Notes: generated by a model not told the origin, from the sequence alone. 64,000 nt of DNA from an uncultured Gemmatimonadaceae bacterium (GCA_963740355.1 CAVUDW010000003.1:2016001-2080000); one strand, 5' to 3'; shown: positions 28,801 through 49,977, counted from the first letter of the stretch. Made by a program: numbers and translations.

Positions 28801-29191
28801 CGAGCCACATGCCACCCGCGACCGAGGCCTCGTTGCGATCGAGGAACGGCGCCAGATCCGGCAGCATCTCGGCTGGATAGGTGAACGGCGCGTCCTTGCA
28901 GCGATCGTCGACGAAGAAGTCGAACGGATTCACCGGCTTGATGTCGCAGGTGAATTCCACGCCCACCTGCAGCGACTCCACCGTGGTGCCGGCCGGATAG
29001 GTGAGACGCCCGACGAAGTTGCCGTACGGGTCCTGGAGCCAGCGGATGTCGCCTACCGGCGACACCGTCAGGCCGTAGGTCTCGATGTCGGCCTGGGTAT
29101 GGCTGGCCGGGCGGAGCCGGATCAGGTGCGGACCGAGGGCCGCCGGCGACGGATAGGCCCAGGTGCTCTGGTGCTGGACGAGGAGTCGCAT
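25856..29191 (-). CDS. Transglutaminase + DUF2126 putative amidoligase fusion
   Basis: GSCRDS/LHAW/GLDAT triad; [52 protein letters not shown]. Confidence 0.92.
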
Positions 29192-30110: not shown

Positions 30111-31817
30111 TCACGGCACCGGCGCATTCCGATCGATCTGCTTTTTCATGATCTGCAGCAGTTCCTGATTGCTCCACGGCTGCCACCCATGCGGCTTGAG
30201 TGGGCGACCGTATTCGATGGTGCCAGCGTAGTACGGTCCCTTTCCTGGCTCCTTCGTGCTCTCGAGAAAGGTCTCGAATCGGTACACACCGAGGTTGAGG
30301 AAATAGTTGTCCATGTCCCCGACGGCCACGTGCAGCTTGCCGACCAGCTTCGGGCCGATCGTGCGCCAGTTTCGCTCGACGTAGTCGCGCAGGTCGTAGC
30401 CACGCGCGCGCATCGAGTCAGCCACTGCGCGATCGATCACGCCGCTGCGCTTGTCCCACGGCGAGAGCGGATATCCATCGGCGCCGACCGGTGCCCACGC
30501 CGCGGCCCATCCATCCCACTGCCCGCCGGAACGACCGTGCGACGCAATCACCAACTCGGCGGCGTTCTCTTCACGCACTGTCAGCTCGGTGAGCCCTTCC
30601 ACGCTGCGGCTGGACGGCACTTCACGCGGCAGCCACGAACCATCGTTCATCACGAAGGCATTCGAGTCGGCGTAGATGTTGCCGAACTGGTAGTTGCGGA
30701 AATCCAGCTGGTCAGGATACAACGACCACGCACCGCCGAAGACGTCGGGATAGTGAATCTGCAGCGCCAGCACATCCCAGCCGCCGGTCGATCCGCCCGT
30801 CAGCATACGTGCATATGGCGCCGCCACCGTGCGGAATCGGCGATCGATTTCCGGGATCAGCTCCTGCGTGATCGCATCGCCATATGGGCCGTTGTTCGGC
30901 GAGTTGAGCACGTAGCTGTCGTCGTAGAATGGCGTCGTGTGCTGGATGAACACTGCGATCACTTCCGGCACCGAGCCTGATGTCCACGCCTTCTGAAATT
31001 CACAGCCCGGTTCGCGTGCACTGCGTGCGAGACGTGCCGTACGCGCCGCCGCCGTTTCTGGCGTGTCGCACCCCTCGAAGGTGAAGCCGAACGGGGCCCG
31101 TTCGCTGAAATGCCCGATCGTGTACACCACCGGATACCGGCGCGTCGGATTCTGGTCGTAGCCCTTCGGCAGCAGCACGACCGCGCCCATCGGCATCGGA
31201 TGATTCCAGAACGCGCTGGCGAGCTTCGAGGTGATGCGTACGCGCTTGACCCACTCCGTCTCCGCCTGCCCCGGCACGGCGGGCAACACCTTGGTCAGCG
31301 TCAGCGAAAGCGTCGTCTTGCGTGCGGGATCGATGCGGACCTTCTGCACCTCGCTCACCAATGAGCCAGGTGCCGCGTTGAACCGCTGTCCTTCACCCGC
31401 ATCCATGTGGGCCCAGATCGTGTGACCGTCGGCGCGCGCGAACTTCGTGTATGGCACGATCATCCCCTGCACGAAGTAGTCGCCCGCAGGCAGCCGATCG
31501 AGCGACGCCACCGGGAAACCCGGCACCGTCGGGTCGAAGGTGACGGCCTCCCCCGGCTTGAGCGCCGAGACATCGACGCCGAAAAACGGCTCACTGCTGC
31601 GTGAGGAGCCGGATTGACGGCGTGGTTCGGCCTTGTCGTTGCGGGCCACGAACAGAAACGCGCGGCCAGTGATCGGACCGGCGTTGACGCTGGCCGGAAA
31701 AGAGAGGCGGACCGTCTGCGCGCCAGCCAACACCGGTGCCAGCAGGCAGGCGAGCAGCGCGGCCATCCGTGGCGCACGCAAGGAAGAACGCGAAATCAGC
31801 AGGGGAGAATTCATCAT
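30111..31817 (-). CDS. Exported putative esterase (alpha/beta hydrolase)
   Basis: VLLPKGY, YPVVY, ELIPEID, GGSTGG nucleophile elbow, GDMD, PHGW. Confidence 0.85.
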   Translation of the reverse strand: MMNSPLLISRSSLRAPRMAALLACLLAPVLAGAQTVRLSFPASVNAGPITGRAFLFVARNDKAEPRRQSGSSRSSEPFFGVDVSALKPGEAVTFDPTVPGFPVASLDRLPAGDYFVQGMIVPYTKFARADGHTIWAHMDAGEGQRFNAAPGSLVSEVQKVRIDPARKTTLSLTLTKVLPAVPGQAETEWVKRVRITSKLASAFWNHPMPMGAVVLLPKGYDQNPTRRYPVVYTIGHFSERAPFGFTFEGCDTPETAAARTARLARSAREPGCEFQKAWTSGSVPEVIAVFIQHTTPFYDDSYVLNSPNNGPYGDAITQELIPEIDRRFRTVAAPYARMLTGGSTGGWDVLALQIHYPDVFGGAWSLYPDQLDFRNYQFGNIYADSNAFVMNDGSWLPREVPSSRSVEGLTELTVREENAAELVIASHGRSGGQWDGWAAAWAPVGADGYPLSPWDKRSGVIDRAVADSMRARGYDLRDYVERNWRTIGPKLVGKLHVAVGDMDNYFLNLGVYRFETFLESTKEPGKGPYYAGTIEYGRPLKPHGWQPWSNQELLQIMKKQIDRNAPVP

Positions 31818-31932: not shown

Positions 31933-34900
31933 ATGACATTGCCGCCCCCATTCGCCCACTCGATTGCCATCGTCATCGGCATCGATCGCTACGCGAACGG
32001 AATTCCGGAGCTGCGCACCGCAGCCAACGACGCGCAACGGCTGGCCACCTTGCTGGCCGAGCAACACAGCTACGATGTCACCACGCTGATCGACGCCGAT
32101 GCCTCACGGGCACGCCTGACGGAATTGCTGACGAAGGAGCTGCCCGCGCGCGTCGGTGTCGACGACCGCGTGCTCTTCTACTTCGCCGGCCATGGTGTGG
32201 CGCGCGACAGTGACGAAGGCCCGAACGGCTACCTGCTTCCAGCGGACGCGCGACGCGGTGACGAGTCCACGTACCTCAACATGCCGCTGGTGCACGACGC
32301 GCTGCTTGGACTCAGCTGCCGCCACATGCTGGTCGTGCTCGACTCCTGCTTTTCCGGCGCATTCCGGTGGTCGGGCACACGCGACGCCGAGGAAGTGGTG
32401 GAGGTGGTGCATCAGGAGAAGTATGACCGGTTCGTGAAGGACCCCGCCTGGCAGGTGATCACCTCCGCCTCGCAAGACCAAAAGGCCATCGACCAACTCT
32501 CGGCAGGCGCACTCGGGAGCCGTGATGGCGATGGCGCACATTCCCCATTCGCGCTCGCCCTGTTCGATGGATTGAGCGGCAAGGGCGATGTCATTCCGCG
32601 CGAGGGTGGCGACGGGTTGGTGACGGCCACCGAGCTCTATCTCTATCTCGACGAGACACTGCAGAGCGCGGCACTGGCCGCAGGCAAGACGCAGACGCCA
32701 CGACTGTGGCCGCTGAAGAAGCACGACAAGGGCGAGTTCGTCTTCTTCGTTCCAGGCCGCGATCTCTCGCTGCCCCCGGCGCCACCGCTCACCTTCGACA
32801 ACAATCCGTGGCGCGGCCTCGCATCGCACGACGCCACCAATGCGACGCTGTTCTTTGGGCGTGATGCAGAAACGGAAGCGCTGCGAAAGAAGGTCGAAGC
32901 CAATCCACTGACCGTGGTGCTGGGTGCATCCGGCACAGGAAAGTCTTCGCTGGTGAAGGCCGGCGTCGTCCCTCGCCTCACGGCCGGCGGCTGGCTGGTG
33001 TTGCCGATTGTGCGCCCGGGGTCAACACCGCTGATCGCGCTTGCACAGGCACTGTCGGTTGACGGTCAGGGCTCGGCCGGCGCCGCCACTCCGGAGAGCG
33101 TCACTGCCGTGATGCAGCGACTCCTCGATGCACAGGGCGACAAGAAAGTCGTGCTGGTGATCGATCAGTTCGAGGAACTGATCACCCTCGTGCCCTCCGG
33201 CGCCGAGCGCGATCGCACGCTGGCGCTGCTCGCCAGTCTCGCCGATGCGCACGCCGATCGCTTGCGCATCGTCGTCACGATCCGCACCGACTTCGAGCCC
33301 AATTTCGACCGCTCCGCCTTCGGCGATCGGTGGCGAGAGGGCCGCTACAACGTGCCACCGATGTCGCGGCAGAATCTCCGCGACGTGATCGAGAAGCCGG
33401 CCGCCGCGCGAGTGTTGTACTTCGACCCATCCAGCCTCGTGGACACGCTGCTGGACGAGGTGGTGACGACGCCGGGCGCGTTGCCACTGCTCTCCTTTGC
33501 GTTGAGCGAGATGTACATCGCCTACGTAAAGCGCCAGAGCAGCGATCGTGCCATCACACGCGCCGACTACGATGGCCTTGGTGGAGTCGCTGGCGCACTT
33601 CGCTCGCGCGCCGAATCCGAGTACGCCGCGCTCGACGCGGCACATCGCGCCACGCTGCGTCGCGTCATGCTGCGCCTGGTGACCGGTGAAGGTGGTGGCC
33701 TCGCACGGCGGCGAGTGATGGATGCCGAACTCGATTTTGCCGACATGGACGAACATGCCCGCGCCGCCAACGTGGTGCAGCGCCTCACCGCCGCACGACT
33801 GCTCGTCGAAGGGAAGGAACCGGATGGCGAGGCATTCGTCGAACCGGCGCACGATGCACTGGTCCGTGGCTGGGGACGCCTGATGGAATGGGTGCGCGAA
33901 GAGAACGAAGCGAAATTCGCGCTCTCGCAGCAGCAACGGCTCACGCGATCGGCCACCGAATGGGAGCGAGCCGACGCCACCTCGAAATCCGGCCTGTTGT
34001 GGAGCGACTCGTCGCGCAGCGCCCAGCTGGCGCCGCTGGTTCGGAAGAAGGCCCCGTGGCTCAATCGTCGAGAGCTGGCTTTCGCGCAGCGCAGCATCCG
34101 GGGGCGGCGGATCACGATGGCAACCGTCGCCGGCGCGCTGCTCACCATCACCGCGGCCGGAATCGTCGCCATCGTGGGCGGCCTGCGAGCCAGTGCACGA
34201 GCCGAGCAGGTTCGCATCGGGGCAATCGTCCGCACGGCCACCTCGATGGTGACCGAGGATCCGATGATCGCCGGCCTGCTGCTCGGCAGCATCGACAGCG
34301 CCGCCGTCGAGAAGGCTGATGCCGCCACCCGTCTCGCGATGCTCGGCGCCGCACTCGAGCTGCGTCGCGGGCCTCGCGTCCTGGCCACCTTCAACGCCGA
34401 CGATGAAGTCGTCGCGGCGCGGATCAGCCCCGATGGCCGATCGGTGGCGACCGCCGTGATCGACAATGAAGTGCGGATCTGGCGCGCCGATGGCACCGGG
34501 TCACCGCTGGTGCTGCGGCAGCCGAACATGCCGGTGACGGCGATCGAGTTTTCGCCGAGCAGTGATCGTCTGGCCGTCGGCGATGCAAACGGCGCGATCC
34601 GCATCTGGCCACGAACCGGCCCCGGCGCTCCAGTCACGCTGCCGGGCGATGCGACGCCCGTCTTGCGGATGCAGTTCAGCCGAGACGGCAGACGCCTGCT
34701 GGTGACGTACGATGTCGGTGCGGCGAAGATCTGGACGACCGACGGCTCGGGCTCGCCAACCGAGATCCAGTCGAAGAAGATCAAGTACCTCGTCGCCGGC
34801 GTGTCGCCTGAGACCGGCAAGGACATGCTCACCCCAGCGTTCGTGGGCGTGGACGAGGCGCTGTTCGCCGATGGCGATCGACAGGTCGTGACGATCATGC

Positions 34901-36684
34901 GCGACAGCAGCGTGCAATTCTGGCCCAGCGTCGGTGTGGCCGAGCCGACGCGCACGGTACGACTGCCGCGACGCGAGGAACCGACGCGGATCGCGGTCAG
35001 CCCGGACGGCAAACGCGTCGCCGTCGGCGGTCGGAACGCGCAACTCTTCGTGCTCGATCTGGGCGTCAAGTCGCGCAGCCTGCGGCTCTCCGGCGCCACC
35101 GGCGACATCGCGGCGCTCGGCTGGAGCCCCGACGGCGCGATGTTGGTGAGTACTGCCACCGACACCGGCATGCTGGTGTGGAATACGACCTCGGGCGAAC
35201 GCATCCGCCGATTCCGGCACAACGGCGAGGCGATGCAATCGGCCGATTTCAGCCCGGACGGTCGCTCGATCATCACGACCTCGCCGTATTCGTTTCAGGC
35301 TACCATCTGGTCGCTCGACAGCGCGGTCGTCGCGCTCCCAGGCCAGACGAACGAGCTGGTGGCGGCAGACTTCGCCCCTGATTCGCGTCGCGTCCTCACG
35401 GCCGCGAAAGACGGCAGCGTGCGGCTCTGGTCGCTACCAGACCCACCCATCTACTCCGAACGCGGTGGCATCGAAAGCGAACATCCCGAAGGAGGCAACA
35501 TCGCGGCGGTGGCATTCTCGCCGGACGAAAGAACGATCGCGATGAGTACGCTGGACGGTCTTATGTATCAAAAGCGGCTTGATAGTGTCTCGATGAAGCG
35601 TATGATCGACTCTGCGCCAGGGACGCTGCGGACGCTGGCATTTTCGCCTGATGGACGCCGCCTGCGCGGTCTCCTGTACGACGGAACGCGGCGACTCTGG
35701 ACGCTCGGCACAATCCCGTCCCGTGCGGACGTCCCGACGAGCTCGACCGCATTTGCGATCACCACGGAGTTCGCCGCCGACGGTCGGCACGCACTCTCCA
35801 TCACCGATCAGGGCAGCGCGCTGGTGTGGGATGTCGACACGAAATCACCGCCGATGACGCTGCAGCTTCTCCCCGCCGATTCCATCTGCGCCGGTCAGGA
35901 CGGCGACGACGATTGCGCCGATCCGTTGGATAGCTGCGCCGCGCTGTCGCGCGATGGTCAGTTCGCGGCGGCATGCCTGCGCGCGGGTCCGGCCGCGATC
36001 TACCGCGTGCCGACGACGACGCCATTCCGCACGATCACGACACCCCGATCGAGCCGGTCCACAGCCGTGGCATTCAATTCCGACGCCAGCCGGATCGCGG
36101 TCGGCTACGGCAACGGCAGCATTCGGCTCTTCACGGTCGCCGGCGCAGATACCGGCCGCCTGATCGCAGGACATCGGCAGGCGGTAAAGCTGCTCGACTT
36201 CTCCCCCGATGGTCAGCGACTGCTCTCGGCCGCCAAGGACGGCACGGTCCGCGTCTGGGACACCGCGACGGGCACCTCGCTCGTCACCATCCGACCCAAA
36301 GGCCTGGTGATTCAGGTCGCGAAGTTCACGCGCGACGGGACACGCATCGTCACGCTCGGCGCCGGCGAAGTGGATGGTCGGCTGTGGAACGCTGATGGGT
36401 CGGGCGGCTTCGTCTCGATGCCGGCCGGGCGAGGCGAAGTCCGCGAGCTGTATCCCAGCGCCAGTGGCAGATGGCTGCTGGCCACCAGTGCCGAGCAGAC
36501 CGCCCAGCTCTATCCACTCGATCCGAATGATGCGATCGCCGCATTTCGAAATGCCCGCACCTGCATGACAGTGGCCGAACGCCAGCGGTACCTCACCGAG
36601 TCCGCGCCAGACGCGACAACCCGATATCGAGCGTGCGAGACAAGTCGACGTGGTACTGATACGACGACAACGCCTGCGCGATGA
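31933..36684 (+). CDS. Caspase (C14)-nSTAND1 NTPase-TM-WD40 protein (NLR-like)
   Basis: FYFAGHG / LDSCFSG dyad; NPWRGL, Walker A GASGTGKS, Walker B VIDQFEE, GALPLL, HDALVRGW; TM 34111-34185; many FSPDG..TA..DG.VR.W repeats. Confidence 0.92.
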   Translation: MTLPPPFAHSIAIVIGIDRYANGIPELRTAANDAQRLATLLAEQHSYDVTTLIDADASRARLTELLTKELPARVGVDDRVLFYFAGHGVARDSDEGPNGYLLPADARRGDESTYLNMPLVHDALLGLSCRHMLVVLDSCFSGAFRWSGTRDAEEVVEVVHQEKYDRFVKDPAWQVITSASQDQKAIDQLSAGALGSRDGDGAHSPFALALFDGLSGKGDVIPREGGDGLVTATELYLYLDETLQSAALAAGKTQTPRLWPLKKHDKGEFVFFVPGRDLSLPPAPPLTFDNNPWRGLASHDATNATLFFGRDAETEALRKKVEANPLTVVLGASGTGKSSLVKAGVVPRLTAGGWLVLPIVRPGSTPLIALAQALSVDGQGSAGAATPESVTAVMQRLLDAQGDKKVVLVIDQFEELITLVPSGAERDRTLALLASLADAHADRLRIVVTIRTDFEPNFDRSAFGDRWREGRYNVPPMSRQNLRDVIEKPAAARVLYFDPSSLVDTLLDEVVTTPGALPLLSFALSEMYIAYVKRQSSDRAITRADYDGLGGVAGALRSRAESEYAALDAAHRATLRRVMLRLVTGEGGGLARRRVMDAELDFADMDEHARAANVVQRLTAARLLVEGKEPDGEAFVEPAHDALVRGWGRLMEWVREENEAKFALSQQQRLTRSATEWERADATSKSGLLWSDSSRSAQLAPLVRKKAPWLNRRELAFAQRSIRGRRITMATVAGALLTITAAGIVAIVGGLRASARAEQVRIGAIVRTATSMVTEDPMIAGLLLGSIDSAAVEKADAATRLAMLGAALELRRGPRVLATFNADDEVVAARISPDGRSVATAVIDNEVRIWRADGTGSPLVLRQPNMPVTAIEFSPSSDRLAVGDANGAIRIWPRTGPGAPVTLPGDATPVLRMQFSRDGRRLLVTYDVGAAKIWTTDGSGSPTEIQSKKIKYLVAGVSPETGKDMLTPAFVGVDEALFADGDRQVVTIMRDSSVQFWPSVGVAEPTRTVRLPRREEPTRIAVSPDGKRVAVGGRNAQLFVLDLGVKSRSLRLSGATGDIAALGWSPDGAMLVSTATDTGMLVWNTTSGERIRRFRHNGEAMQSADFSPDGRSIITTSPYSFQATIWSLDSAVVALPGQTNELVAADFAPDSRRVLTAAKDGSVRLWSLPDPPIYSERGGIESEHPEGGNIAAVAFSPDERTIAMSTLDGLMYQKRLDSVSMKRMIDSAPGTLRTLAFSPDGRRLRGLLYDGTRRLWTLGTIPSRADVPTSSTAFAITTEFAADGRHALSITDQGSALVWDVDTKSPPMTLQLLPADSICAGQDGDDDCADPLDSCAALSRDGQFAAACLRAGPAAIYRVPTTTPFRTITTPRSSRSTAVAFNSDASRIAVGYGNGSIRLFTVAGADTGRLIAGHRQAVKLLDFSPDGQRLLSAAKDGTVRVWDTATGTSLVTIRPKGLVIQVAKFTRDGTRIVTLGAGEVDGRLWNADGSGGFVSMPAGRGEVRELYPSASGRWLLATSAEQTAQLYPLDPNDAIAAFRNARTCMTVAERQRYLTESAPDATTRYRACETSRRGTDTTTTPAR

Positions 36685-36747
36685 GCCGGTCGAAGCAAAT
36701 GCCTGCTGCTCTGGTTCGCGCTACATCCGCGCCGTATCCTTGAGCCT

Positions 36748-39669
36748 GTGACCACGCCCAACCTCCCTGGTGATCCGAAGCCGGTGAACGGGCCGCCTCT
36801 CTCCGGCGTGATCGCCAACCGCTACCGGATCGAACGGCAGATCGGCGAGGGCGGGATGGCGACGGTCTACCTCGCCCACGACCTCACACGCGGGGTATCG
36901 GTCGCACTGAAGGCGCCCAAGGCCGAGTTGGTGATGCAGCTCGGCGCGGCACGCTTTGCGCGCGAAATCCAGATCTCGACCAAGCTGCAGCACCCGCACA
37001 TCGTCCCCGTGCTGGACGCTGGTTTCGCCTCGGAGTCGGTGCCGTTCTACGTCATGCCGTTCATCGACGGCGAGACGCTCGAGCAGAAGCTGGAGCGAAC
37101 CGGCGCCCTCCCCATCGACGAAGCGATCACCATCGCCACCGAAGTGCTGGACGGGCTGATCTACGCGCACAAGCAAGGCTTCGTGCACCGCGACGTAAAG
37201 CCATCGAATGTTCTGATCGCAAACGGGCATGCGATGTTGGCTGACTTCGGCATCGCGCGCGCCGTCGAGACGACCGACAACCGCAAGCTGACCGAGTCGG
37301 GCTTTGCGCTCGGCACCGCCGAGTACATGAGTCCCGAGCAGGCGGCCGGCGATGCGCAGCTCGACGGTCGCAGCGATCAGTACAGCCTCGGTTGCGTGCT
37401 CTATGAAATGCTGGTCGGCGGACCACCGTTCAGCGCGCCGACGGCACGCGCCGTGATGGCTCGGCACTTCGTGGATCCCGTGCCGAGCATTCGCACGGTG
37501 CGCGACACCGTGCCGGAGAAGCTCGAGCAGGCGGTGATGACTGCCCTGTCGAAGATTCCGGTCGATCGATTCGCGGACGCCGCAGCCTTCAAGGCAGCGC
37601 TGAAGGACCCGACGCTGCGCGACGCGACGGCGGCGAGACCGACCACCGCGGCACTGGCAAGGCGCAAGCGAACACGCGTCGTGGGTGGCGTACTCGCGGC
37701 GGTAGCCGTGATCGCGGCACTCACTCTCTGGCGTATGGGTGGAAGTGCCAGTGCGGTGCTCGATCCGAATCGGGTCATGGTCTACCCGTTCGTGACGCCT
37801 GCCGGCTACAGCGGTGCACAAGCGGTGGGCGAAGACGTTGCCACCATCATCGGCAACGCACTCGATGCGGCCGAGCCATTGCGTTGGGTGGACGGGTGGT
37901 CGATGCTCGCCGCGAAGGATCGCGAGAATATCCGGCTGCTCGAAGCGGATGACGCGCGCCGGCTGGCACGTGAGAAACGCTGCGCCACGTTCATCACCGG
38001 GAGGCTCGTGCCGAGCGGTGATTCCGTGAAGGTGTACCTCACGCTGAATGATGTCAGCGGTGACTCGGTACTGGCGCAGGGCGAAGCCACCGGCAGCGCA
38101 AAGGACCCATGGCGCCAGGGCCTTCGCGCCATGAGCGGCATCCTGCCGAAGCTGATCCCGGGCGGCACCAGAGACGTTTCGGCGGACTGGAAGGATCGCA
38201 GCCCTGGTGCGGTCGCCAGCTTCCTCCTTGGCGAAGCAGCATTCCGTCGCGTGCAGATGACGGATGCGCTGACGCGCTTCCGCAAGGCAATCGAGCTCGA
38301 TTCGACCTTTGCGCTGGCGGCGTTGCGTGGCGCACAGGCGGCATCCTGGAATCACCGGAGCGCTGAAGCTGCGTCGATGGTGTCTGTTGCACTCACGCAG
38401 CCGTTACCACCACGCTATCACCAGCTTGCGGTCGGAATCGCGGCGTATCTCGCCGGGCACGCCGATTCTGCGATCGTTCACCTGCATGCAGCGACAGCGG
38501 CCGATCCGGATATGACCGTCGCCTGGATGCAGCTGGGTGAGGTGTACACACACCTGCTGCCGTTGGCTGGCAATACCGACTCACTGGCAGACCTCGCATT
38601 TTCGCGGGCACGGATGCTCGACACCAATGCGGCGAGCGCACTGCTGCATCCGATCGAGATACGCCTTCGTCGCGCCGACACGGTCGCGGCGCAGGCGCTT
38701 CTGGCACGCTTCCGCGCCGCAAACCCTGATGCGCCCCTTCTTGCGCCGCTCACGATCGCCGAGACCTGCGTGACCAAGGGCGCGACGGCGGTAGACTGGA
38801 ACGGCGAGGCCGCGCGGCAACCGCTCTACCTTCTCGCAGCATCGAAGACACTCGCCGGTGGTGGCGCGCAGCTCGAGTGCGCGGTCGCAGGCTTCCGCGC
38901 GATTCTGGCCATCGATACGGCGGCGACGGATGAAGCCGATGCCCGGCGATTCGCCGCCATGCTCGGCCTGCAGGCAATTCACCTCGCCCGTGGTCAGCCG
39001 GCGTTGGCATCTGCCACCATCGATGCATTCGTCGCCCGCTGGGGTGCAGGGTCATCGCTGTTCCTGCTCGATGGAGCATTCGAGCCCGCGCTGCTCGCTC
39101 GGGCTAGCGCGGTCGCCGCATCGGATGCCGCGACGTACGGTGTGAACTACACCAACTTGCCGTACGCGCGGCGACTCTGGGAGTTGGGGATACTCGAGAT
39201 GCGGACGGGCAGCGTGGACGTGGCCGCAGCGGCCGCCGCAGAACTTCGCCGCCGCGGTGCCGACCCCGACTCCAGCTATGCGCTCGCACGCGCAATGTCG
39301 CTCGAGGCGTTCGTCCAGCTCGCGCGCAGCACCACGAGAGCCGATTCAGCGAATGCCGAGCAGCGTTTCGTCGCGCTGCTCGAGCGCGGCCCGGACGGGG
39401 AGTCCTATCAGTGGGATGAGGCCGCACCGATGGCGGCAGAACGACTCACGCTGGCACGGTTGCTCCAGGCCCGAGGTGCGTACGAGCAGGCAATCGGTGT
39501 CGCCGAAGTGTTCGACTCGCGTTGGCCGCTGGTCTACGTGCAATTCCTGCCAGCCAGTCTCGAACTGCGGGCGGCGGCAGCGAAGTCGCTTGGCAATTCC
39601 GCGCGCGAGTCGCATTATCTAACTCGCCTCGCTGCACTGCGAAGTCAGGTGAAGGCTACCGGAGGCTGA
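36748..39669 (+). CDS. Membrane Ser/Thr kinase with TolB-N-like and TPR-like C-terminal region
   Basis: IGEGGMA, VALK, HRDVKPSN, DFG, MSPEQ; TM VVGGVLAAVAVIAALTLW; helical repeats such as FRKAIELDSTFALA. Confidence 0.92.
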   Translation: MTTPNLPGDPKPVNGPPLSGVIANRYRIERQIGEGGMATVYLAHDLTRGVSVALKAPKAELVMQLGAARFAREIQISTKLQHPHIVPVLDAGFASESVPFYVMPFIDGETLEQKLERTGALPIDEAITIATEVLDGLIYAHKQGFVHRDVKPSNVLIANGHAMLADFGIARAVETTDNRKLTESGFALGTAEYMSPEQAAGDAQLDGRSDQYSLGCVLYEMLVGGPPFSAPTARAVMARHFVDPVPSIRTVRDTVPEKLEQAVMTALSKIPVDRFADAAAFKAALKDPTLRDATAARPTTAALARRKRTRVVGGVLAAVAVIAALTLWRMGGSASAVLDPNRVMVYPFVTPAGYSGAQAVGEDVATIIGNALDAAEPLRWVDGWSMLAAKDRENIRLLEADDARRLAREKRCATFITGRLVPSGDSVKVYLTLNDVSGDSVLAQGEATGSAKDPWRQGLRAMSGILPKLIPGGTRDVSADWKDRSPGAVASFLLGEAAFRRVQMTDALTRFRKAIELDSTFALAALRGAQAASWNHRSAEAASMVSVALTQPLPPRYHQLAVGIAAYLAGHADSAIVHLHAATAADPDMTVAWMQLGEVYTHLLPLAGNTDSLADLAFSRARMLDTNAASALLHPIEIRLRRADTVAAQALLARFRAANPDAPLLAPLTIAETCVTKGATAVDWNGEAARQPLYLLAASKTLAGGGAQLECAVAGFRAILAIDTAATDEADARRFAAMLGLQAIHLARGQPALASATIDAFVARWGAGSSLFLLDGAFEPALLARASAVAASDAATYGVNYTNLPYARRLWELGILEMRTGSVDVAAAAAAELRRRGADPDSSYALARAMSLEAFVQLARSTTRADSANAEQRFVALLERGPDGESYQWDEAAPMAAERLTLARLLQARGAYEQAIGVAEVFDSRWPLVYVQFLPASLELRAAAAKSLGNSARESHYLTRLAALRSQVKATGG

Positions 39670-39697
39670 GCCTCCATTCCCGTCCGAGGGTAGTTCG

Positions 39698-40027
39698 ATG
39701 ACCAAAGGTCGCGAAGGTGATGTCGTTGCGCCGACATCGAGTAAGGGTCGTGATGGCGACATCGTGGCGCCGGTCTCAGGCAAGGGACGCGAGGGAGACA
39801 TCGTCGCGCCGGTCTCAGGCAAGGGTCGCGAGGGAGACATCGTCGCGCCGGTGTCAGGCAAGGGTCGCGAAGGAGACATTGTCGCACCGGTCTCGGGCAA
39901 GGGTCGCGAAGGGGACATCGTCGCGCCGGTCTCAGGCAAGGGACGCGAAGGCGACATCGTCGCACCGGTCTCGGGCAAGGGTCGCTCCGGTGGGGAACCG
40001 GTGAAGAAGGACCCGCGCGACCGATAG
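39698..40027 (+). CDS. Small tandem-repeat protein, 7 x 13 aa (KGREGDIVAPVSG); candidate multi-copy peptide precursor
   Basis: GAGGG RBS 7 nt before ATG; fills gap between co-oriented genes; differences among units 3-7 are all synonymous in this frame. Confidence 0.8.
   Translation: MTKGREGDVVAPTSSKGRDGDIVAPVSGKGREGDIVAPVSGKGREGDIVAPVSGKGREGDIVAPVSGKGREGDIVAPVSGKGREGDIVAPVSGKGRSGGEPVKKDPRDR
39704..39985 (+). repeat. 39-bp coding tandem repeat, about 7.2 units
   Basis: aagggNcgcgaRggNgacatYgtcgcNccggtNtcNggc repeated head to tail with no spacers. Confidence 0.95.
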
Positions 40028-40058
40028 GTCCCCCACGATTTCACAACACAGCACAACC

Positions 40059-41636
40059 ATGACGATGCCCGAGTCTTCTGTCGACGGCGTCCGCCGCGCC
40101 GTGGTCATTGGCGTCGACAACTACACCAAGAAGCCGCTCGACGGGTGCGTTGCCGACGCGACGATGATGGCCGAGGTACTGCAGCAGCGGTTCGCGTTCG
40201 ACAAGGCGAATATCTCGCTCCTGCTGAACGATGCCGCGCGCCGCGATGCCGTGCTTGCGGAGCTCGACCAGCTCGTCGATCTCACCACGGCGAACGATGT
40301 CGCGTTCATCTTTTACGCCGGCCATGGTTCACAGTCGGTGAATAGCGACAACACCGAATCGAGTGGCTACGACAGCACCTTCAACGTCTGCGACAATCCG
40401 CGCGAGGACATTCTCGACGACGAGATCGCGGCGCGCCTCGCTGCCCTCGGCGAGAAGTCGCCCTGGACGGTGATGATCGTTGACGCCTGCAATTCAGGCA
40501 CGCTCACCCGCAGCGCAGACGCCGGGCCGAAAGAACGCTGGACGCCGCCGGTCGACCGCACAGCCCTGCCGGCCGCTGCGCAGCAGGCGCTCACGACGCG
40601 AAGTCCCGTCGCTGCAACACCGGAGTCGTACGTTCTCCTGACGGCCTGCCGTGATGGCGAGATCGCGCAGGAGACGGTCATCCCCGGCGACCAGACCATC
40701 CACCACGGGGCGTTCACGTTTGCACTCGTTCACGAGTTGCAGCGCGCAATCGGTGGCGACACCTGGCGCGACGTATTCGATCGGGTGTCACGGGCGGTCA
40801 GCACAGTGCACAAGGAGCAGCACCCGCAGATCGATGGCAATCTCGATCGCGAAATCTTCGGCCTCCGGCAACTGCCACCGATGCCGTTCGTGGCCATCAC
40901 TGATCGCGCCAGTACCTCCGCCGTGCTCGCCGCCGGCTCGCTGCACGGTGTCAGCATCGGCAGCGTGTACACGATCTACGCCGATGGGACCAAGGATGTC
41001 ACCGGCGCAGCGTCGCTTGGCACGGTCGAAGTGACACTGGTGAAGGGCACCACGTCTCGTGCACGCGTCGTCTCTGAGACGGCACCTGGTGCGATCGTGA
41101 TCGGCTCACGCGCTGTACAATCACAACGCCGAACAGTCGACGATGCGCTTGCGCTCACCAATACCGATCCGAAGAGCCGCATGCAGGGTGCCGTCACCCT
41201 CGAGATCCTTCGTCGTGACGTCGACGGTGCGTGGGCCGTCGCCATGGACGACGTGTCGTTCGGCATGCCCGTCTTCGACTCCGGCGATCGCATCGCATTT
41301 CGCATGACGAACACACTCGATGAGCCAGTGTTCGTGAACCTCTTTGACTTCGACCCGACGGGTACGGTGTCAGTCAAGACGAAAGGCTGGGCGAATCAGC
41401 TGAAGGCAAAGGGGGTGTTCGAGATCGGTACGGACACCCGCAAGATCTCGATGCGCTGGGATGCGGATGACGCGGTGGAGTCGTTCAAGCTGTTTGCATC
41501 CGTCGCGCAGGTGGACCTCTCCTGGCTCCTGCAGCTCGACCAGCCGGGGCGCGGCACTGAGGAGGTGTCATCGCTTGCGGTCGACGACTGGTGCTCGCAC
41601 GTGAAGTCAATCCGCATCCGTCGGAAACTCGCATGA
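40059..41636 (+). CDS. Metacaspase-like C14 protease with C-terminal DUF4384-like domain
   Basis: RAVVIGVDNY..LDGCVADA, FYAGHGS, IVDACNSG, GAFT, QHPQ; C-terminal GDRIAFRMTN..FVNL..ESFKLFAS. Confidence 0.9.
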   Translation: MTMPESSVDGVRRAVVIGVDNYTKKPLDGCVADATMMAEVLQQRFAFDKANISLLLNDAARRDAVLAELDQLVDLTTANDVAFIFYAGHGSQSVNSDNTESSGYDSTFNVCDNPREDILDDEIAARLAALGEKSPWTVMIVDACNSGTLTRSADAGPKERWTPPVDRTALPAAAQQALTTRSPVAATPESYVLLTACRDGEIAQETVIPGDQTIHHGAFTFALVHELQRAIGGDTWRDVFDRVSRAVSTVHKEQHPQIDGNLDREIFGLRQLPPMPFVAITDRASTSAVLAAGSLHGVSIGSVYTIYADGTKDVTGAASLGTVEVTLVKGTTSRARVVSETAPGAIVIGSRAVQSQRRTVDDALALTNTDPKSRMQGAVTLEILRRDVDGAWAVAMDDVSFGMPVFDSGDRIAFRMTNTLDEPVFVNLFDFDPTGTVSVKTKGWANQLKAKGVFEIGTDTRKISMRWDADDAVESFKLFASVAQVDLSWLLQLDQPGRGTEEVSSLAVDDWCSHVKSIRIRRKLA

Positions 41637-43555
41637 CACCCCGGGTCTACGCCCTCCTGGTGGGCATCAACGACTACGTCGCCGTGCCCAAGCTGCATGG
41701 CTGCGTCGCGGACATCTCGGCCGTGGAAGCACTGCTGTCCTCACGCATCCCGAAGGACGCGCTCGACATGCAGGTCTTGCATGACGACAATGCGACCCGC
41801 GCCGGCATCATCGACGGATTCCGGACTCACCTGCGAAAGGCCGCGGCGGACGACATCGCGGTGTTCTACTTCTGTGGCCACGGATCGCAGGAGAATTGCC
41901 CGCCGGAGTGGCTCCCGCTCGAGCCAACGAGCAAGAACCAGACGATCGTGCCGGTGGACGCCCGAACCGGCGACGTGTTCGACATCGCGGACAAGGAGTT
42001 GAGTGCGCTGATCCACGAAGTGGCAGCAGGTGGTGCACAGGTGGTGACGATCTTCGACTCGTGTCACTCCGGTGGCGTGACACGTGATATCGACGACACG
42101 ACGCTCGGGCATGAGAGCCCCGTGCGCATGACTGCCGCCAGCACCGGGCGGACGCGAACACTCGCCGACTATCTCGATCTCGCACGCACCCTGTACGACC
42201 CGACGCGCATCGCCGCCGAGGGGCCACCCGATCCCAGTCATATCGCGATCTCGGCCTGTCAGTACGACCAGACGGCGAAGGAATTCCCGATACAGCCACC
42301 GCGCCGCGGTGCGTTCACGCAGGCGTTCGAAGAGGCAGCGAGTTCGCTCGGCCCGTCTGCGAGCTACATCGATCTCGTCACAGCGGTCCGCACGAGAGTG
42401 CGTGATCGCGCCACGGACCAGATGCCGAGCCTCTCAGTGATTGGCAAGGCCGACGGTGCCTCGATCTTCATGGCAGGGCATGTCGGGCGGCGGGACCTCA
42501 CCTTGGACATCGATTCGACCGGAGCATGGTGGTTGTCGTCGGGATCGATCACCGGTATTCCGCCAACTGAAAGCGGCAACGTCACCTCCGTCGCCATTTT
42601 CCCGCGAGGCGCCTTCGACTCGCCTGCCGCGACACCTGCGCCGATTGCGACAGCGACCATCGATCTCGTCACCGCCGATCGTGCACGTTTGAAGTTGGGC
42701 AGCAATTCAGCACCGCTTGATGCCGCACAGCAGTACCTCGGTACAATTTCTGGTATGGGTACGCCGCCCCTCAATGTCGTCGTTACTGGGGCGGTGGCCG
42801 AGCAGACTGCGGCAGTCACGACGGTCCTGGCCGGGCGCAGTGGGCTGTTCGCCGTGAATGCGACGGCGACATCGAGCTTGCCGACGGTCACCGTTCGTGT
42901 CGATGCGACAACAGCCACGATCCACGACGCCGATGGCGCGCCATTGCCGAACCAGCAGTTCACGCTCGAAGCCGCGGGGCTGCAGTCGCTCGCCAACGCC
43001 TGTGATCATCTCGCGAAGTGGTACGGCACGCGCGATCGCACGCCGATCGCATCGACGCTCAACGGCAGGGTGACGATCGACGTCGTGCCCGTCGCGCCCG
43101 GTGAGACGACGGTTCCTCCTGATCGCGCTGCTGTCGCTCCCACCAATGGCACGGTCGTGCTGCGCTACACGGGTGACCAGCCGCCGGTGGTGCAGTTCCG
43201 GCTCAAGAACACGTCGGGAGTGCGGTTGTATGTCGCACTCCTCGACCTCACCGATTCGTATGGATGCTCGGTGAAGTTCAGCGATTGGATTCCCGCCGGC
43301 GGCACGGCGCTCGCCGGTGGCGGCAAGACGTACAAGATGAGCTTTGCCGCGTGGCGGGATCCGTCGTTCACGGTCACGACCGACATCATGAAGCTCTTCG
43401 CCGCCACCAGTGATTTCAGCACGACGCAGCTCGTGCTCGAATCGCTGTTGAAGCCGAAGGTGGTGGGCGGGACGCGGGAAGCGGTGGAGGAGGAAGAGGA
43501 GCCGGACACGTCCTTTTGGGGGACGACGGCGGTTGTCGTGGAGACGCGGCGGTAG
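41633..43555 (+). CDS. Metacaspase-like C14 protease with C-terminal DUF4384-like domain (paralogue)
   Basis: YALLVGINDY..LHGCVADI, FYFCGHGS, IFDSCHSG, ISAC, GAFT, QMP; ATGA overlap with upstream stop. Confidence 0.9.
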   Translation: MTPRVYALLVGINDYVAVPKLHGCVADISAVEALLSSRIPKDALDMQVLHDDNATRAGIIDGFRTHLRKAAADDIAVFYFCGHGSQENCPPEWLPLEPTSKNQTIVPVDARTGDVFDIADKELSALIHEVAAGGAQVVTIFDSCHSGGVTRDIDDTTLGHESPVRMTAASTGRTRTLADYLDLARTLYDPTRIAAEGPPDPSHIAISACQYDQTAKEFPIQPPRRGAFTQAFEEAASSLGPSASYIDLVTAVRTRVRDRATDQMPSLSVIGKADGASIFMAGHVGRRDLTLDIDSTGAWWLSSGSITGIPPTESGNVTSVAIFPRGAFDSPAATPAPIATATIDLVTADRARLKLGSNSAPLDAAQQYLGTISGMGTPPLNVVVTGAVAEQTAAVTTVLAGRSGLFAVNATATSSLPTVTVRVDATTATIHDADGAPLPNQQFTLEAAGLQSLANACDHLAKWYGTRDRTPIASTLNGRVTIDVVPVAPGETTVPPDRAAVAPTNGTVVLRYTGDQPPVVQFRLKNTSGVRLYVALLDLTDSYGCSVKFSDWIPAGGTALAGGGKTYKMSFAAWRDPSFTVTTDIMKLFAATSDFSTTQLVLESLLKPKVVGGTREAVEEEEEPDTSFWGTTAVVVETRR

Positions 43556-43568
43556 GGCGGGCGCAGAA

Positions 43569-45587
43569 TCAGCGTGGTCTTTCGACTAACTGTGGTTGCG
43601 CGCGACCTGCTGCCTGCAGACCGTTGCCGAGTGCGCCGAAGACGTTGGAGCCCCAGCACCAGGCCTTGCCGCTCGCGCTGAAGGCGCAGGCGTGGCGAAA
43701 GCCGACGCTGATCGACGTAAAGTTACCTGCTGGTTGATTTGGGATCAGCTTCGGTGCGAACTCGACTCCGAGCGCGTCGCTTCCGCTCTGCCGCCATTGG
43801 TTGCTGCCCCAGCAGTACGCCGCACCCGAGGATTCCAGTGCGCATGTGTGTGAGGAGACGGCGTCTCCGCCTGCTACCACGTACGCGAGTGGCGACGAGG
43901 AAGCAACAGTAGTTGGCGTCGTGACGAATCCGACGTTCGAGTTGATGCCAAGCTGGCCACTTGAATTGTCGCCCCAGCACTGCGCCACACCGTTCGCTCG
44001 AAGTCCACATGTATGCTTATAGCCTGCACTGACCGACACATACGGGCCGCCCAAAACTGTGTCCGTCAATGCGTCAGTGCTCTGCAACGTACCGAGTCCG
44101 AGTTGCCCACGGTCATTGGCGCCCCAACAGAAAGTCCGTCCCGCTACCGTGACGGCACATGTGTGAAATCCGCCGGCGGCGATCGATCGAAATGTTGTAT
44201 CCGGATAGATCGGAATGGGAGTCGTCGAGTTCACACGGCGCGCGTCGCCGAGCTGCCCTGTCGAGTCACGCCCCCAACAGAACGCCTTGCCTGCCGCCGT
44301 CAACGCGCACGCATGGTTGGCACCCGCAGAGATCGAGTCGAAACGTTCGCTGCGCACGGTCACGAGGCGCGGCGTAGTGCCGCCACCCGGCGACGAACCG
44401 TTGCCGATCTGGCCGTACGTGTCCGATCCCCAGCAATAGGTCGAACGATCGGTCGTGATTCCGCACGCGAAGTTGCCGCCGAGCGAAATTGTCTTGAAAG
44501 AGAGTGTATTCGTCGAGTCGTGCTTCGGTGAAAGTGAGCAGGCGAAGCGAACGGGTGAGGGGGCTTCGAAGGAATCGAAACAGAGGCTATCCCCAGCAGT
44601 CGCAAGCTGCCCGAGATCTCCCTTGCCCCAGCAATAGAGACGTCCGGTGACCGTCGTTCCGCAGGAGAAGTCGCCCCCTGCTCGGACCGTGACCAGGTCG
44701 CGTTCGAGCACCGTGAGCGTGATCGAGGCGGTCCGGAATCCAGAGGCCGCCGAGATCGTAACAGCGCCCGCACTCCGGGTAATCACGCGTCCCGATGTAT
44801 CGACAGTCGCAACCGTGTTGTCCGAGGTCGTCCAGACGAACTTCCGCCCCGCGACTGCACGATCGTCGTACCCGCGTGCCGTCGCCTTGACGATCACCGT
44901 ATCCGAGGCGAGGACCTGCGTCACGGGCGTGGTCAAGGCGATGTCCTTGATCACCGGAAGGACGGTGACAGTCCCGGAGCCGGCCGCGGAAATTGCCGAC
45001 GCGGTCAGGCCCGCAACGCCTGGCGCCACCGCGTGGACAGTGCCGGTCGAATCGACGGTCGCCACGGTTGGGGCGAGCGAGGTCCAGACGAAGCGTGTCC
45101 CGGCAACTGCCTTCGCACTGTCGTCGAAAGCCGTCGCCACGAATCGAAGGGAGTCCGCACGGACGATCGGGTCATCCACGATGATCGTGTCGCTCCGCGG
45201 CGTGACGGTGACCCGTTGTGCGGCGCGAGCGATCACAATCGTGGCGTATCCCTTCACGCGCGCACTGGCCGCAATGCGCACCGTGCCGAGATTGACCGGC
45301 CGGACCACACCCGCCTCGTTGACCACCGCGACCGAGGAGTCCTCGGTGAGCCAGATCACCCGCCCGCCGGTGATCGTCTGGAAGTCGGTGCCGACGATGC
45401 GTGCTGACAGCTGCCGCTGGTCGGTCGGGCGCAATGTGTCCGCCACGAAGATCGTATCCACTTCCGGCGTCACGTCGACGCGCAGAACGCTGGAGCCGGT
45501 CAGGCCTGGATCAATCGGGCCAGTATCCGCATCACAACCTGCAAGTGTCAGCGCGAGGCCGAGGGAGAGGAGAGCGCCGCGAGTCAT
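43569..45587 (-). CDS. Lipoprotein with Ig-like (Big_2) repeats and RCC1 beta-propeller
   Basis: Lipobox LAGC; three W.S....VATVD..G.V repeats; seven AG..H.C....G...CWG repeats. Confidence 0.9.
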   Translation of the reverse strand: MTRGALLSLGLALTLAGCDADTGPIDPGLTGSSVLRVDVTPEVDTIFVADTLRPTDQRQLSARIVGTDFQTITGGRVIWLTEDSSVAVVNEAGVVRPVNLGTVRIAASARVKGYATIVIARAAQRVTVTPRSDTIIVDDPIVRADSLRFVATAFDDSAKAVAGTRFVWTSLAPTVATVDSTGTVHAVAPGVAGLTASAISAAGSGTVTVLPVIKDIALTTPVTQVLASDTVIVKATARGYDDRAVAGRKFVWTTSDNTVATVDTSGRVITRSAGAVTISAASGFRTASITLTVLERDLVTVRAGGDFSCGTTVTGRLYCWGKGDLGQLATAGDSLCFDSFEAPSPVRFACSLSPKHDSTNTLSFKTISLGGNFACGITTDRSTYCWGSDTYGQIGNGSSPGGGTTPRLVTVRSERFDSISAGANHACALTAAGKAFCWGRDSTGQLGDARRVNSTTPIPIYPDTTFRSIAAGGFHTCAVTVAGRTFCWGANDRGQLGLGTLQSTDALTDTVLGGPYVSVSAGYKHTCGLRANGVAQCWGDNSSGQLGINSNVGFVTTPTTVASSSPLAYVVAGGDAVSSHTCALESSGAAYCWGSNQWRQSGSDALGVEFAPKLIPNQPAGNFTSISVGFRHACAFSASGKAWCWGSNVFGALGNGLQAAGRAQPQLVERPR

Positions 45588-45889
45588 CGATTTTCCGAGG
45601 GGAGAGTCCGTTCCGATCAGCTGAGCTGAGCCGACGCAAAGGTTCGATACGAGTCGAAGCCTTTGCACGGATCAGACCGGAACGCCGATCGGCGCGGCAC
45701 GTCCACCCCCTCCTCTACAGCGACGCTGCTTTGAGCGCCACACTGTCCGCGGCTCGTCTCGGATTGTGGCAGCTTCGCTACGAAAGTGCAGCGCACTCAA
45801 AGGATGGCTGCATCCCTACTAGGAATATTCTGCTAATATATCAAAACATCGTGCGTGACATATCACGCCGGAATCCTCTGCGAGGCCCG

Positions 45890-49800: not shown

Positions 49801-49977
49801 AACGGCCAGCAACGTGAGGGTAAAGATCGCCGTCAGGAATCGCTGGTTGAGCGCGGCCCGCACGATCTTGTTGGCGAACGAGGGCGGTCCGACATGTGTG
49901 TTCTCGCGCGACGCCTCAGCGGCATCGAGTTCGGCGTGCCCAGATGGGCCAGCTGACGAATCGTCGGCGGCACTCAT
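46801..49977 (-). CDS. czcA: Heavy-metal efflux RND permease (CzcA/CusA family, CzcA-type TM4)
   Basis: LPVDAYPD, AIDFGILVDGAVVMVEN, GKLFAPMA, EFMPKLDEG, RLRPIMMT. Confidence 0.9.
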   Translation of the reverse strand: MSAADDSSAGPSGHAELDAAEASRENTHVGPPSFANKIVRAALNQRFLTAIFTLTLLAVGIWSFRRLPVDAYPDLSPPLVSITTAWPGHAAEEVERLVTLPIERETNGIERVKVVRSVSLYGLSHVVLTFQDGTDPYFARQRAFEHIPDVALPDGVSAGVEPLFSPSGLVYRYVLESPDRSAMELKVINDWILSKAYKAVPGVADLGGLGGETMEYQVLIDPSKLAGAGLSVSDVTSALGDNNDNAGGGFYTQGGQFFYVRGLGRVATLADIGNVVITTKNGIPILVKDVGRVEIGQAPRLGQFGFNTRNDAVEGIILLRVGEQAQVVLEHVEATTRDLNDHVLPKDVKIRTYYDRRDLIALTTKTVEDNLVRGIVLVIVVLVFFLMDVRAGLIVALTIPLSLCFAFICLDLRHIPANLLSIGAIDFGILVDGAVVMVENIHRQIARRQGTQYSLKEVIIGAASEVDRPIVYAVAVIVAGFLPIYVLNGPSGKLFAPMADTTIFALLGALLLTLTVVPVLCTWLLRGGVKERRNLAFDWLRDRYETLLDWSLAHRRTVVGVSTALFVIAAALTFRVGGEFMPKLDEGAMWVRATMPYTISFEESAKIVPEVRRILATFPEVTTVASEHGRDDAGTDPTGFFNAEFYVGLKPYSEWTGAYRTKAALIARVNEKLQVFPGIQFNFTQPAEDAVDEAETGLKSALDVKVFGTDLGTLEAKGMEVKHVLEKVPGITHVTLVQEFGQPALTIQLDREKMARFGLSAATVNGLIEAAVGGAAATQVVQGEQTFDLVVRLQPQFRQSPEAIGNILVATPSGSQVPLREVATLQISNGASFIYRQNSSRYIGIQYSVEGRDLAGAVQQAQREVNKVVSFPIGYRAAWGGEYEEYEASRSQLQVVLPITIALIFLLLFGLYHNVKFPVITLLGVILSGPIGGMVALIVTGTPFSVSSGIGFLALFGVSVQTAVVYISCANELRLAGTGIVQATREAALLRLRPIMMTALVAAFGLLPAALATGVGTDSQRPFALVIIGGLFSRLLISVFLMPVLYEMVAREGDHLEI

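Follow-up and report, generated by a model that had tools for sequence, protein, structure and literature searches.

A tandem-repeat gene between a receptor kinase and a metacaspase-like protease in Gemmatimonadota, encoding a putative multi-site protease substrate

What could be the role of a small protein built of near-identical peptides, when its gene is lodged between the genes for a receptor kinase and a caspase-like protease? This question is raised by a stretch of 64,000 nucleotides from an uncultured Gemmatimonadaceae bacterium (GCA_963740355.1 CAVUDW010000003.1:2016001-2080000), hereafter referred to as the window. Five co-oriented genes, g1 to g5, occupy positions 31933-43555 on its plus strand. 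The central gene, g3 (39698..40027, +), encodes a repeat protein of 109 amino acids (aa), predicted to be disordered, with seven units of 13 aa. It is preceded by g2 (36748..39669, +), which encodes a receptor Ser/Thr kinase of 973 aa with a TPR ectodomain, and followed by g4 (40059..41636, +), which encodes a metacaspase-like C14 protease of 525 aa. The coordinates of the open reading frames (ORFs) confirmed the close packing of the five genes that had been noted in an initial annotation of the window, with gaps of 63, 28 and 31 bp and an overlap of g4 and g5 within the sequence ATGA. As detailed below, comparison with related loci indicates that the kinase gene, the repeat ORF and the g4-type caspase gene are the conserved core of this cassette. 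We see about an even chance that the locus is a Gemmatimonadota-specific elaboration of a known protease-effector module of caspase and alpha/beta-hydrolase, acting in cell death or defence, and that its metacaspase-like protease(s) cleave the repeat protein after Arg at multiple sites.

A repeat ORF between kinase and caspase genes

A search with g4 against 61 related genomes yielded full-length orthologues with 42-67% identity in 10 other genomes of the same genus, and one orthologue that was cut at a contig start. In 10 of the 10 loci with upstream DNA, a tandem-repeat ORF directly preceded the caspase gene. The units measured 12 aa (GKGREDSVAPVT, SKGRSDGVAPVT, VKGRGGDAAPQA), 14 aa (NKGRGRDTTAAPAP) or, in one genome, 27 aa, and four genomes carried 8-aa units of the form KREG[S/V/A]AAP or TREGSAAP. 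On further genome contigs, the repeat ORF was present in both additional orthologous loci (2/2). A sample of 401 genomes from the phylum added seven genomes of other families, and the loci of six of these were examined. Five had a small ORF between the kinase and caspase genes. Clear arrays were seen in four of the six (GGREGATAPPPA, GKGREGATAPPPP, GRGEGTPPPGGG, GGDRDPGAKPTS), and one further array was degenerate. The sixth locus, in genome G352 (L132 10450-10860), is ambiguous: its array is partly masked (N) and reads as EGGGGGRGVD units on the kinase strand, with strand and frame ambiguous, and its kinase gene is divergent from the caspase-hydrolase gene. With this exception, the kinase gene was directly upstream of the repeat ORF and co-oriented with it wherever upstream DNA was available.

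A metagenome scan was started independently from the kinase ectodomain. It returned 46 contigs, 35 of which were assessable, partly by eye. All 14 contigs with a downstream caspase gene had a small ORF in between, namely 10 clear arrays, three degenerate ones and one non-repeat ORF of 62 aa; six further contigs had an array before the contig end. The other 15 of the 35 contigs encoded paralogous kinases, mostly with 30-39% ectodomain identity, that were accompanied by neither ORF nor caspase and served as a negative control. Not all loci are independent, as L139 and L141 are 98% identical to the locus of genome G003, while L142 encodes the same peptide as genome G211. The initial annotation had staked its proposal on homologous loci carrying a repeat ORF, and the neighbourhood comparison revealed a small Arg/Gly/Pro-rich ORF in the slot at the window and 17 other genome loci, tandemly repeated in most, and in 20 of the 35 assessable metagenome contigs. 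Because the repeat recurs at the same position in relatives, we conclude from these comparisons that it is no chance feature, and that a kinase, a repeat ORF and a caspase-barrel-DUF4384 protein, encoded in this fixed order, form the conserved core.

The range of this arrangement appears limited. About 75 loci on genome contigs matched g4 in the caspase domain only (25-38% identity), and none of them had a tandem-repeat small ORF beside the caspase gene. Because these loci, from Chitinophagaceae, cyanobacteria and others, encode different caspase families, they limit the range of the cassette but say nothing on the link between repeat and protease. None of these searches revealed the cassette outside Gemmatimonadota-like sequences. 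The view that all five genes form one system, as initially annotated, held for the conserved linkage of the repeat ORF to kinase and caspase, but not for a fixed set of five. A second caspase-fold protease often follows the core. However, orthologues of g5 (41633..43555, +; 640 aa) occur only in the near clade, and a CHAT protein follows instead in three of the six distant loci. Full-length g1 orthologues upstream of the kinase gene were detected in only two other loci, L041 (69% identity) and that of G015 (52%). Between close relatives (L037, L038, L041), the cassette proteins are 53-70% identical, as opposed to 84-89% for a flanking esterase (30111-31817) and 90% for a flanking M28 peptidase (54864-57128). 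This suggests unusually rapid evolution of the whole cassette or an exchange of divergent alleles.

In the window, g3 consists of seven 13-aa units (GKGREGDIVAPVS), of which five are identical and the others variants, followed by a basic tail. According to Tandem Repeats Finder (TRF), the array at 39703-39985 (+) has a period of 39 bp and 7.3 copies, with 85% DNA matches and no indels, and together with the translation this bore out the 7 x 13-aa repeat protein originally proposed. A Shine-Dalgarno-like GAGGG box precedes the ATG of g3, and GAGGG-like boxes are also found before the orthologous starts. Conceivably, the ORF could be incidental and the array a non-coding DNA repeat that acts as a regulatory spacer between genes. 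Tandem repeats open frames in high-GC DNA, and each of the six frames has an open stretch of at least 60 aa across the array. In addition, g3 had no homologue in the protein database at E <= 1e-3, but composition filters or unannotated ORFs may explain this result, which weighs neither way. The variation between units points in the opposite direction. In 13 arrays read in the proposed frame, 22 first-position, 16 second-position and 110 third-position codon sites varied between units. Moreover, the same peptide motif is kept across arrays with DNA periods of 24-87 bp, Shine-Dalgarno-like boxes precede the start codons, and no locus has a frame break. A non-coding origin is practically excluded by these patterns.

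The selective constraint on the units was assessed by Nei-Gojobori comparison of the proportions of synonymous (pS) and nonsynonymous (pN) differences between units. For the five residues around the Arg, pS was 0.52 and pN 0.065 (pN/pS 0.12), and for the spacer, pS was 0.50 and pN 0.104 (pN/pS 0.21). Because of the third-position bias and the pN/pS values of 0.12-0.21, we conclude at the sequence level that the repeat ORF is translated and that each unit is constrained, including its spacer. The units appear to be old at the DNA level and yet to have been kept identical as peptides. Units of different species share the motif G-R-[E/D/G]-x4-P, with one invariant Arg per unit, unit lengths of 8-29 aa and 2-14 units per protein. 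Across 33 ORFs, Pro was found at +6 from the Arg in 85% (other offsets, 8-26%) and Gly at -1 in 62%, with E, G or D at +1; the composition was rich in G, A, P, R and K, with almost no aromatic residues, Cys, His or Leu. The copy number of the array is fluid. Specifically, L139 (7842-8552) and L141 (6544-7038) have 11 and five copies, respectively, of KGRGGDAAP[K/Q]AV, an in-frame polymorphism in which the arrays differ by exactly 216 bp (six units) between flanks that are 98-99% identical.

Known families offered no assignment for the repeat protein. Neither Pfam, NCBIfam nor PADLOC gave a family above cut-off for g3, and the eight orthologous repeat ORFs had no Pfam family above cut-off. The g3 protein has no hydrophobic segment (maximum 19-residue hydropathy 0.42); a signal peptide or export signal was not found in the repeat protein, nor an exporter in any locus. 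The small protease-associated effectors EACC1 and Pepco/Trypco were rejected as candidates, there being no family match, no hydrophobic segment for a pore and an unfitting composition. A multi-core precursor of a ribosomally synthesised and post-translationally modified peptide was likewise rejected: the only conserved neighbours are the kinase and the proteases, and the units lack Cys and in some cases Ser/Thr. Weak matches of g3 in G031, G003 (contig C150) and G026 (E 0.002-0.005, inside open frames of 321-434 aa) were taken as low-complexity noise.

The proteases, their hydrolase partner and the kinase

If the repeat protein is a substrate, the protease encoded directly downstream is the prime candidate for its cleavage. 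Pfam assigned Peptidase_C14 to g1, g4 and g5, and their translations contain the His-Cys motifs FAGHG/DSCFSG (g1), YAGHG/DACNSG (g4) and FCGHG/DSCHSG (g5), which verified the initial reading of three C14 proteases with intact dyads. By phmmer, g4 matched the Arabidopsis metacaspase AtMC4 (E 1.2e-10) and yeast Mca1. Its GCVAD, YAGHG, GYDS and DACNSG aligned to GCVND, YSGHG, GFDE and DSCHSG, with the motifs GCxxD, xxGHG and DxCxSG in common, and H89, C144, D33 and D142 were invariant in nine g4 orthologues. Which of the aligned residues line the S1 pocket can be presumed from the literature on MCA2 and Yca1. A structural model of g4, with a predicted local distance difference test (pLDDT) score of 74.2, comprised three parts. 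Residues 10-274 form a metacaspase domain, with matches to AtMC4 (Z 25.5; root-mean-square deviation 3.2 over 226 residues), AtMC9 (Z 24.1) and MALT1 (Z 19.8), and the AtMC4 structures 6w8r/6w8s were thus the best match of g4 in structure as they were in sequence. Residues 275-356 form a six-stranded barrel of the ATPase-N-terminal/HerA type (Z 8-10.8). No SH3 domain was among the matches listed for this middle domain, a result that speaks neither for nor against the idea that the units are SH3 ligands (RxxPxxP). Residues 377-521 form an Ig-like sandwich (Z about 8) in the region of a DUF4384 match that was below the Pfam cut-off (E 0.0017). In both fold and sequence motifs, the acidic ones included, g4 has the features of a metacaspase / orthocaspase (C14B), and its Arg/Lys specificity is a prediction only. 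The second protease, g5, is a paralogue of g4 with 27% identity over the catalytic domain, and its C-terminal half resembled DUF4384 clusters in a language-model feature match (score 0.95). Like g3, both g4 and g5 lack a hydrophobic segment.

The initial annotation had seen no obvious effector. This is true of the window, where the cassette has no DUF7379 and g4 ends at 525 aa and overlaps g5. In most relatives, however, the g4 orthologue has 1007-1231 aa and is fused to a C-terminal DUF7379 alpha/beta-hydrolase (E 1e-50 to 1e-57), which belongs to a known class of protease-activated death effector. The hydrolase is fused in G012, G162, G140, G202 and G352 and encoded by a separate gene in G211. 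Short forms of g4 that end just before the hydrolase part are found in at least three lineages (window, L041, G006, G013). The window locus may therefore be described as a derived, hydrolase-less member of a caspase / alpha/beta-hydrolase lineage. Such a pairing is known in prokaryotic conflict systems (Kaur et al. 2020, PMC7159879). In addition, according to the preprint text available, the caspase-like LcCaspase cuts the zymogen of the alpha/beta-hydrolase LcHydrolase at two conserved R|G sites and thereby activates it (Evans et al. 2025, PMC12642450). An alignment of 13 hydrolase-bearing cassette sequences revealed conserved Arg residues ahead of the catalytic part at columns 817 (R-S/G, e.g. 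EGTRSADGAPT), 869 (R-D/G, PATRDGSVP) and 899 (R-G, ERG), which are at most candidate counterparts of Arg73 and Arg117 of LcHydrolase. When scored with a matrix derived from the repeat units, column 817 ranked among the top four of the 31-102 Arg positions per protein in seven of the 13 sequences, and column 869/870 did so in nine of the 13. We regard this likeness between units and hydrolase Arg sites as suggestive only.

An unrelated CHAT(TCAD7) and DUF7362-DUF7379 pair was observed in the genome of the window itself (G000) at approximately 227.4-231.3 kb of contig C3 (L135 5471-9292), outside the window and 1.8 Mb away. It is a stand-alone protease-hydrolase module, with no repeat ORF or kinase match nearby.

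The kinase encoded upstream of the repeat ORF appears to be intact. The g2 protein matched Pkinase at residues 26-243 (E 5.2e-46, Pfam), its motifs HRD147, DFG166 and SPE195 are intact, and these motifs are nearly invariant in 11 g2 orthologues. Together with the catalytic Lys, one transmembrane (TM) segment at approximately 311-328 and an extracytoplasmic sensor, these are the hallmarks of a Hanks-type Ser/Thr receptor kinase. Hydropathy profiles revealed one hydrophobic segment each in g1 and g2, in agreement with the initial view of two single-pass membrane proteins with repeat sensors. The TPR-like nature of the g2 sensor, a sub-threshold match in Pfam, was backed by a model of the C-terminal 639 residues (pLDDT 87.8; predicted template modelling score 0.86), in which an alpha/beta domain is followed by a solenoid of about 28 helices. 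This ectodomain model matched TPR superhelices, the periplasmic domain of CadC and the N-terminal domain of TolB. The ectodomain has two Cys residues that are invariant among 12 g2 orthologues, in keeping with an extracytoplasmic placement. The TPR ectodomain of about 640 aa is therefore predicted to face the outside or periplasm, with the kinase domain in the cytoplasm. Phosphorylation of the repeat as a general role of the kinase was rejected, since several unit types (KREGAAAP, DRDPQPKPIEAI) lack Ser, Thr and Tyr.

A putative Arg-cleaved substrate and its alternatives

At the sequence level, Arg-directed cleavage of the repeat protein is plausible: g4 is of the metacaspase type in fold and motifs, no unit lacks the invariant Arg, and R|G is the site cut in a published caspase-hydrolase pair. 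We infer the following course of events. The kinase would sense an envelope or extracellular cue and gate the protease; once activated, the Arg-specific protease would cleave after the invariant Arg in each unit of the repeat protein. The product would be many copies of one oligopeptide, in the window EGDIVAPVSGKGR. Where g4 is of the long form, the protease would also arm the hydrolase fused to it, by cuts at similar Arg sites at the N-terminal end of that hydrolase.

Several observations weigh against a role as cleavage substrate in such a module. In the window, g4 is without a hydrolase, so the effector step cannot run in cis here. DUF7379 and the published hydrolase may belong to different families. 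The hydrolase sites scored low in motif likeness (mostly 2-7 bits), and the 13 proteins, being homologues, are not independent of one another. The best-conserved positions of the units are on the prime side (+1 and +6), and caspase-fold enzymes mostly read P4-P1. The repeat protein lacks an export signal, whereas both sensor domains (WD40 of g1 and TPR of g2) are predicted to lie on the outer side of the membrane. The repeat itself is probably not a target of the kinase, whose role as proposed above is a guess. Lastly, the repeat is not perfect everywhere: three metagenome loci have degenerate repeats only, and the slot of L172 (approximately 4140-4330, +) holds the 62-aa ORF without tandem units. 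This ORF contains one SGRD, a helical-looking middle and a Pro7 run, and it may be a diverged or replaced partner.

Three other roles of a translated repeat protein were weighed against that of a substrate in a protease-effector module. The cleaved oligopeptides could themselves be the output, as alarm or quorum peptides that leave the cell on lysis or by leakage, bind the TPR ectodomain of the kinase on sister cells and prime the proteases there. This comes near to the initial proposal of released peptides that act on the WD40/TPR receptors. Purifying selection extends over the entire unit, including its spacer (spacer pN/pS 0.21), and the units are alike within a genome and differ between species, as with pherotypes. 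Furthermore, the ORF has been retained under selection in the hydrolase-less loci (window, L041, G006, G013), the cassette diverges faster than its flanks (53-70% vs 84-90% identity), and the modelled kinase ectodomain is a TPR superhelix, a classic peptide-binding fold that is used by the RRNPP peptide receptors. Yet the peptides are hydrophilic, neither a signal peptide nor an exporter was found in any locus, and release would need lysis, whereas the version in the window is without the presumed lytic effector. We judge an alarm peptide to be somewhat unlikely. The retention of the ORF and the selection on spacer residues are, at the same time, what a sacrificial decoy fails to explain. Here, the many preferred sites would compete with the hydrolase zymogen and with autoprocessing, so that the effector fires only after sustained protease activity. 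Supporting this idea, the conserved Arg sites of the hydrolase N-terminus are similar to the unit motifs, the copy number is free to vary (5 vs 11 units in 98-99% identical contigs), and protease-activated effectors need guarding against leaky activation, by the logic of the available text of PMC12642450. A threshold setter of this kind also leaves the strict linkage to the kinase unexplained. We consider it unlikely.

Alternatively, the protein may not be cleaved at all. As a multivalent adaptor, its units would be epitopes (R-x5-P, polyproline-like) that cluster the proteases via their barrel or Ig-like domains, or tether them to the kinase, resulting in activation by proximity. This would fit the constraint on each unit and the conserved R-x5-P spacing. 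Moreover, besides an Ig-like domain, g4 has a barrel similar in kind to those through which ATPases assemble into rings, and oligomerisation is what activates enzymes of the caspase fold. On the other hand, no binding domain for such motifs was identified in the cassette proteins, the barrel matches reached only Z 8-10.8, and the invariant residue of the unit is exactly the P1 residue that metacaspases prefer. An uncleaved adaptor is, in our estimation, quite unlikely.

The proposed cleavage of the repeat protein by a metacaspase-like protease has parallels outside bacteria. In plants, PROPEP1, metacaspase 4 and the PEPR receptor kinase act in damage signalling. The Gemmatimonadota cassette shares with them an Arg-directed metacaspase fold, a cytosolic precursor without signal peptide and a single-pass receptor kinase with a repeat ectodomain. 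In contrast to the plant system, one cassette encodes all the parts, the precursor strings identical units together in a polyprotein, and the ectodomain is of TPR rather than leucine-rich repeat type. This likeness is one of functional analogy, not of membership. By extension, the cassette could be a bacterial damage- or alarm-peptide circuit, in which the metacaspase, on activation, cuts a cytoplasmic polyprotein into many copies of a species-specific oligopeptide. Set free as the cell dies or leaks, the peptides would be recognised on kin cells by a dedicated receptor kinase, through its TPR ectodomain, and the protease(-hydrolase) module of those cells would be armed in advance; the cassette would then be a single-cassette counterpart of plant Pep/PEPR phytocytokine signalling. 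We regard this extension as doubtful. Precursors with multiple peptide copies that are cut at basic sites are also known from yeast prepro-alpha-factor, processed by Kex2, and from neuropeptide polyproteins. Like these, g3 has tandem identical peptides split by basic sites, a variable copy number and synonymous differences between units. Unlike prepro-alpha-factor, it has neither a secretory pathway nor a signal sequence; the candidate protease is of caspase fold and not subtilisin-like, and the setting is the bacterial cytoplasm. Within bacteria, the RRNPP receptors of Firmicutes are cytoplasmic regulators that bind exported and re-imported peptides. The g2 kinase likewise has a TPR superhelix, a candidate oligopeptide-binding module, linked to a short-peptide gene. 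However, its TPR part lies outside the cytoplasm, joined to a Hanks kinase in one protein, and the peptides are encoded by a tandem array.

The closest relationship is with the caspase / alpha/beta-hydrolase modules. As in these modules, a caspase-fold Cys protease is paired with or fused to a latent hydrolase in most orthologous loci, a protease of this fold with intact His-Cys dyad is present in g1, g4 and g5, the hydrolase has conserved Arg sites in its N-terminal region, and the sensor domains vary. The window departs from them in that its g4 has no hydrolase. In the available text of PMC7159879 and PMC12642450, neither a small tandem-repeat ORF nor a receptor kinase is named as a fixed partner; the words 'tandem repeat' do not occur in that of the former, nor 'kinase' in that of the latter. 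Likewise, no description of the fixed combination of receptor kinase, tandem-unit ORF and caspase(-hydrolase) was found in the literature searched, in line with the initial statement that no described system of this layout was known to the annotator. The effector logic is known, while the kinase and the tandem-unit ORF are apparently undescribed as fixed partners of a caspase.

The activation of death effectors by proteases has lately emerged as a widespread principle in bacterial immunity, and little is known about how such effectors are gated and whether they communicate between cells. To these the cassette adds two fixed partners, namely an outward-facing receptor kinase and a polyprotein of identical short peptides, each unit of which contains the presumed preferred residue of the protease. 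Should the peptides prove to be excised, the protease would be the first of the caspase family in bacteria to have its own multi-copy substrate encoded at the same locus, and caspase-released danger signals, as in plants, would become directly testable in bacteria. Because the cassette is compact (3-4 genes) and offers natural variants with and without the hydrolase as well as copy-number variants, it is suited to reconstitution; it is also widespread within the clade.

The accessory gene g1 and the flanks

The first gene of the window locus, g1 (31933..36684, +), encodes a protein of 1583 aa with Peptidase_C14 at residues 10-218, nSTAND1 (PF20703) at 292-682 (E 7.4e-100) and two WD40 blocks with propellers at approximately 820-1530 (Pfam). 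A Walker A motif, GASGTGKS, is located at residue 331, and the single hydrophobic segment (approximately 730-750) lies between the NTPase and WD40 parts. With a Walker A NTPase flanked by an N-terminal C14 effector and a C-terminal WD40 sensor, g1 has the features of an NLR-like STAND NTPase (nSTAND1). Its domain order, C14, STAND NTPase and WD40, is that of cyanobacterial-type caspase-STAND-WD40 single-chain proteins, and this architecture is an already known type. Compared with those proteins, g1 has the predicted TM segment between NTPase and WD40, and it adjoins a kinase-repeat-caspase cassette in few loci only. It was absent from G006, G012, G009, the distant loci and many other loci with at least 4 kb of upstream sequence, and in G006 and G012 the upstream esterase gene abuts the kinase gene, with no g1 in between. 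From these neighbourhoods we conclude that g1 is an accessory, occasional neighbour outside the conserved core.

A promoter and terminator scan and an Rfam search inside the cassette yielded nothing informative. The flanks of the cassette look ordinary and are not conserved with it; they encode a DUF2126/transglutaminase protein (25856-29191, -), an RCC1-repeat/Big_2 protein (43569-45668, -) and an AcrB-family transporter (46801-49977, -). Within the genus, a gene for a PA/M28/TFR_dimer (glutamate-carboxypeptidase-II-like) peptidase is a recurrent downstream neighbour, found on the minus strand in the window (54864-57128), L031 (16731-18833) and L041 (12842-15178). In the window, about 11 kb with the RCC1/Big_2 protein, the AcrB-type pump and others separate it from the cassette, and its recurrence is probably mere synteny. 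L041, the closest five-gene orthologue of the cassette, is labelled Acidimicrobiia. Because its flanking PA/M28/TFR_dimer gene is 90% identical to that of the window, L041 is most likely a mis-binned Gemmatimonadaceae sequence and not an inter-phylum transfer.

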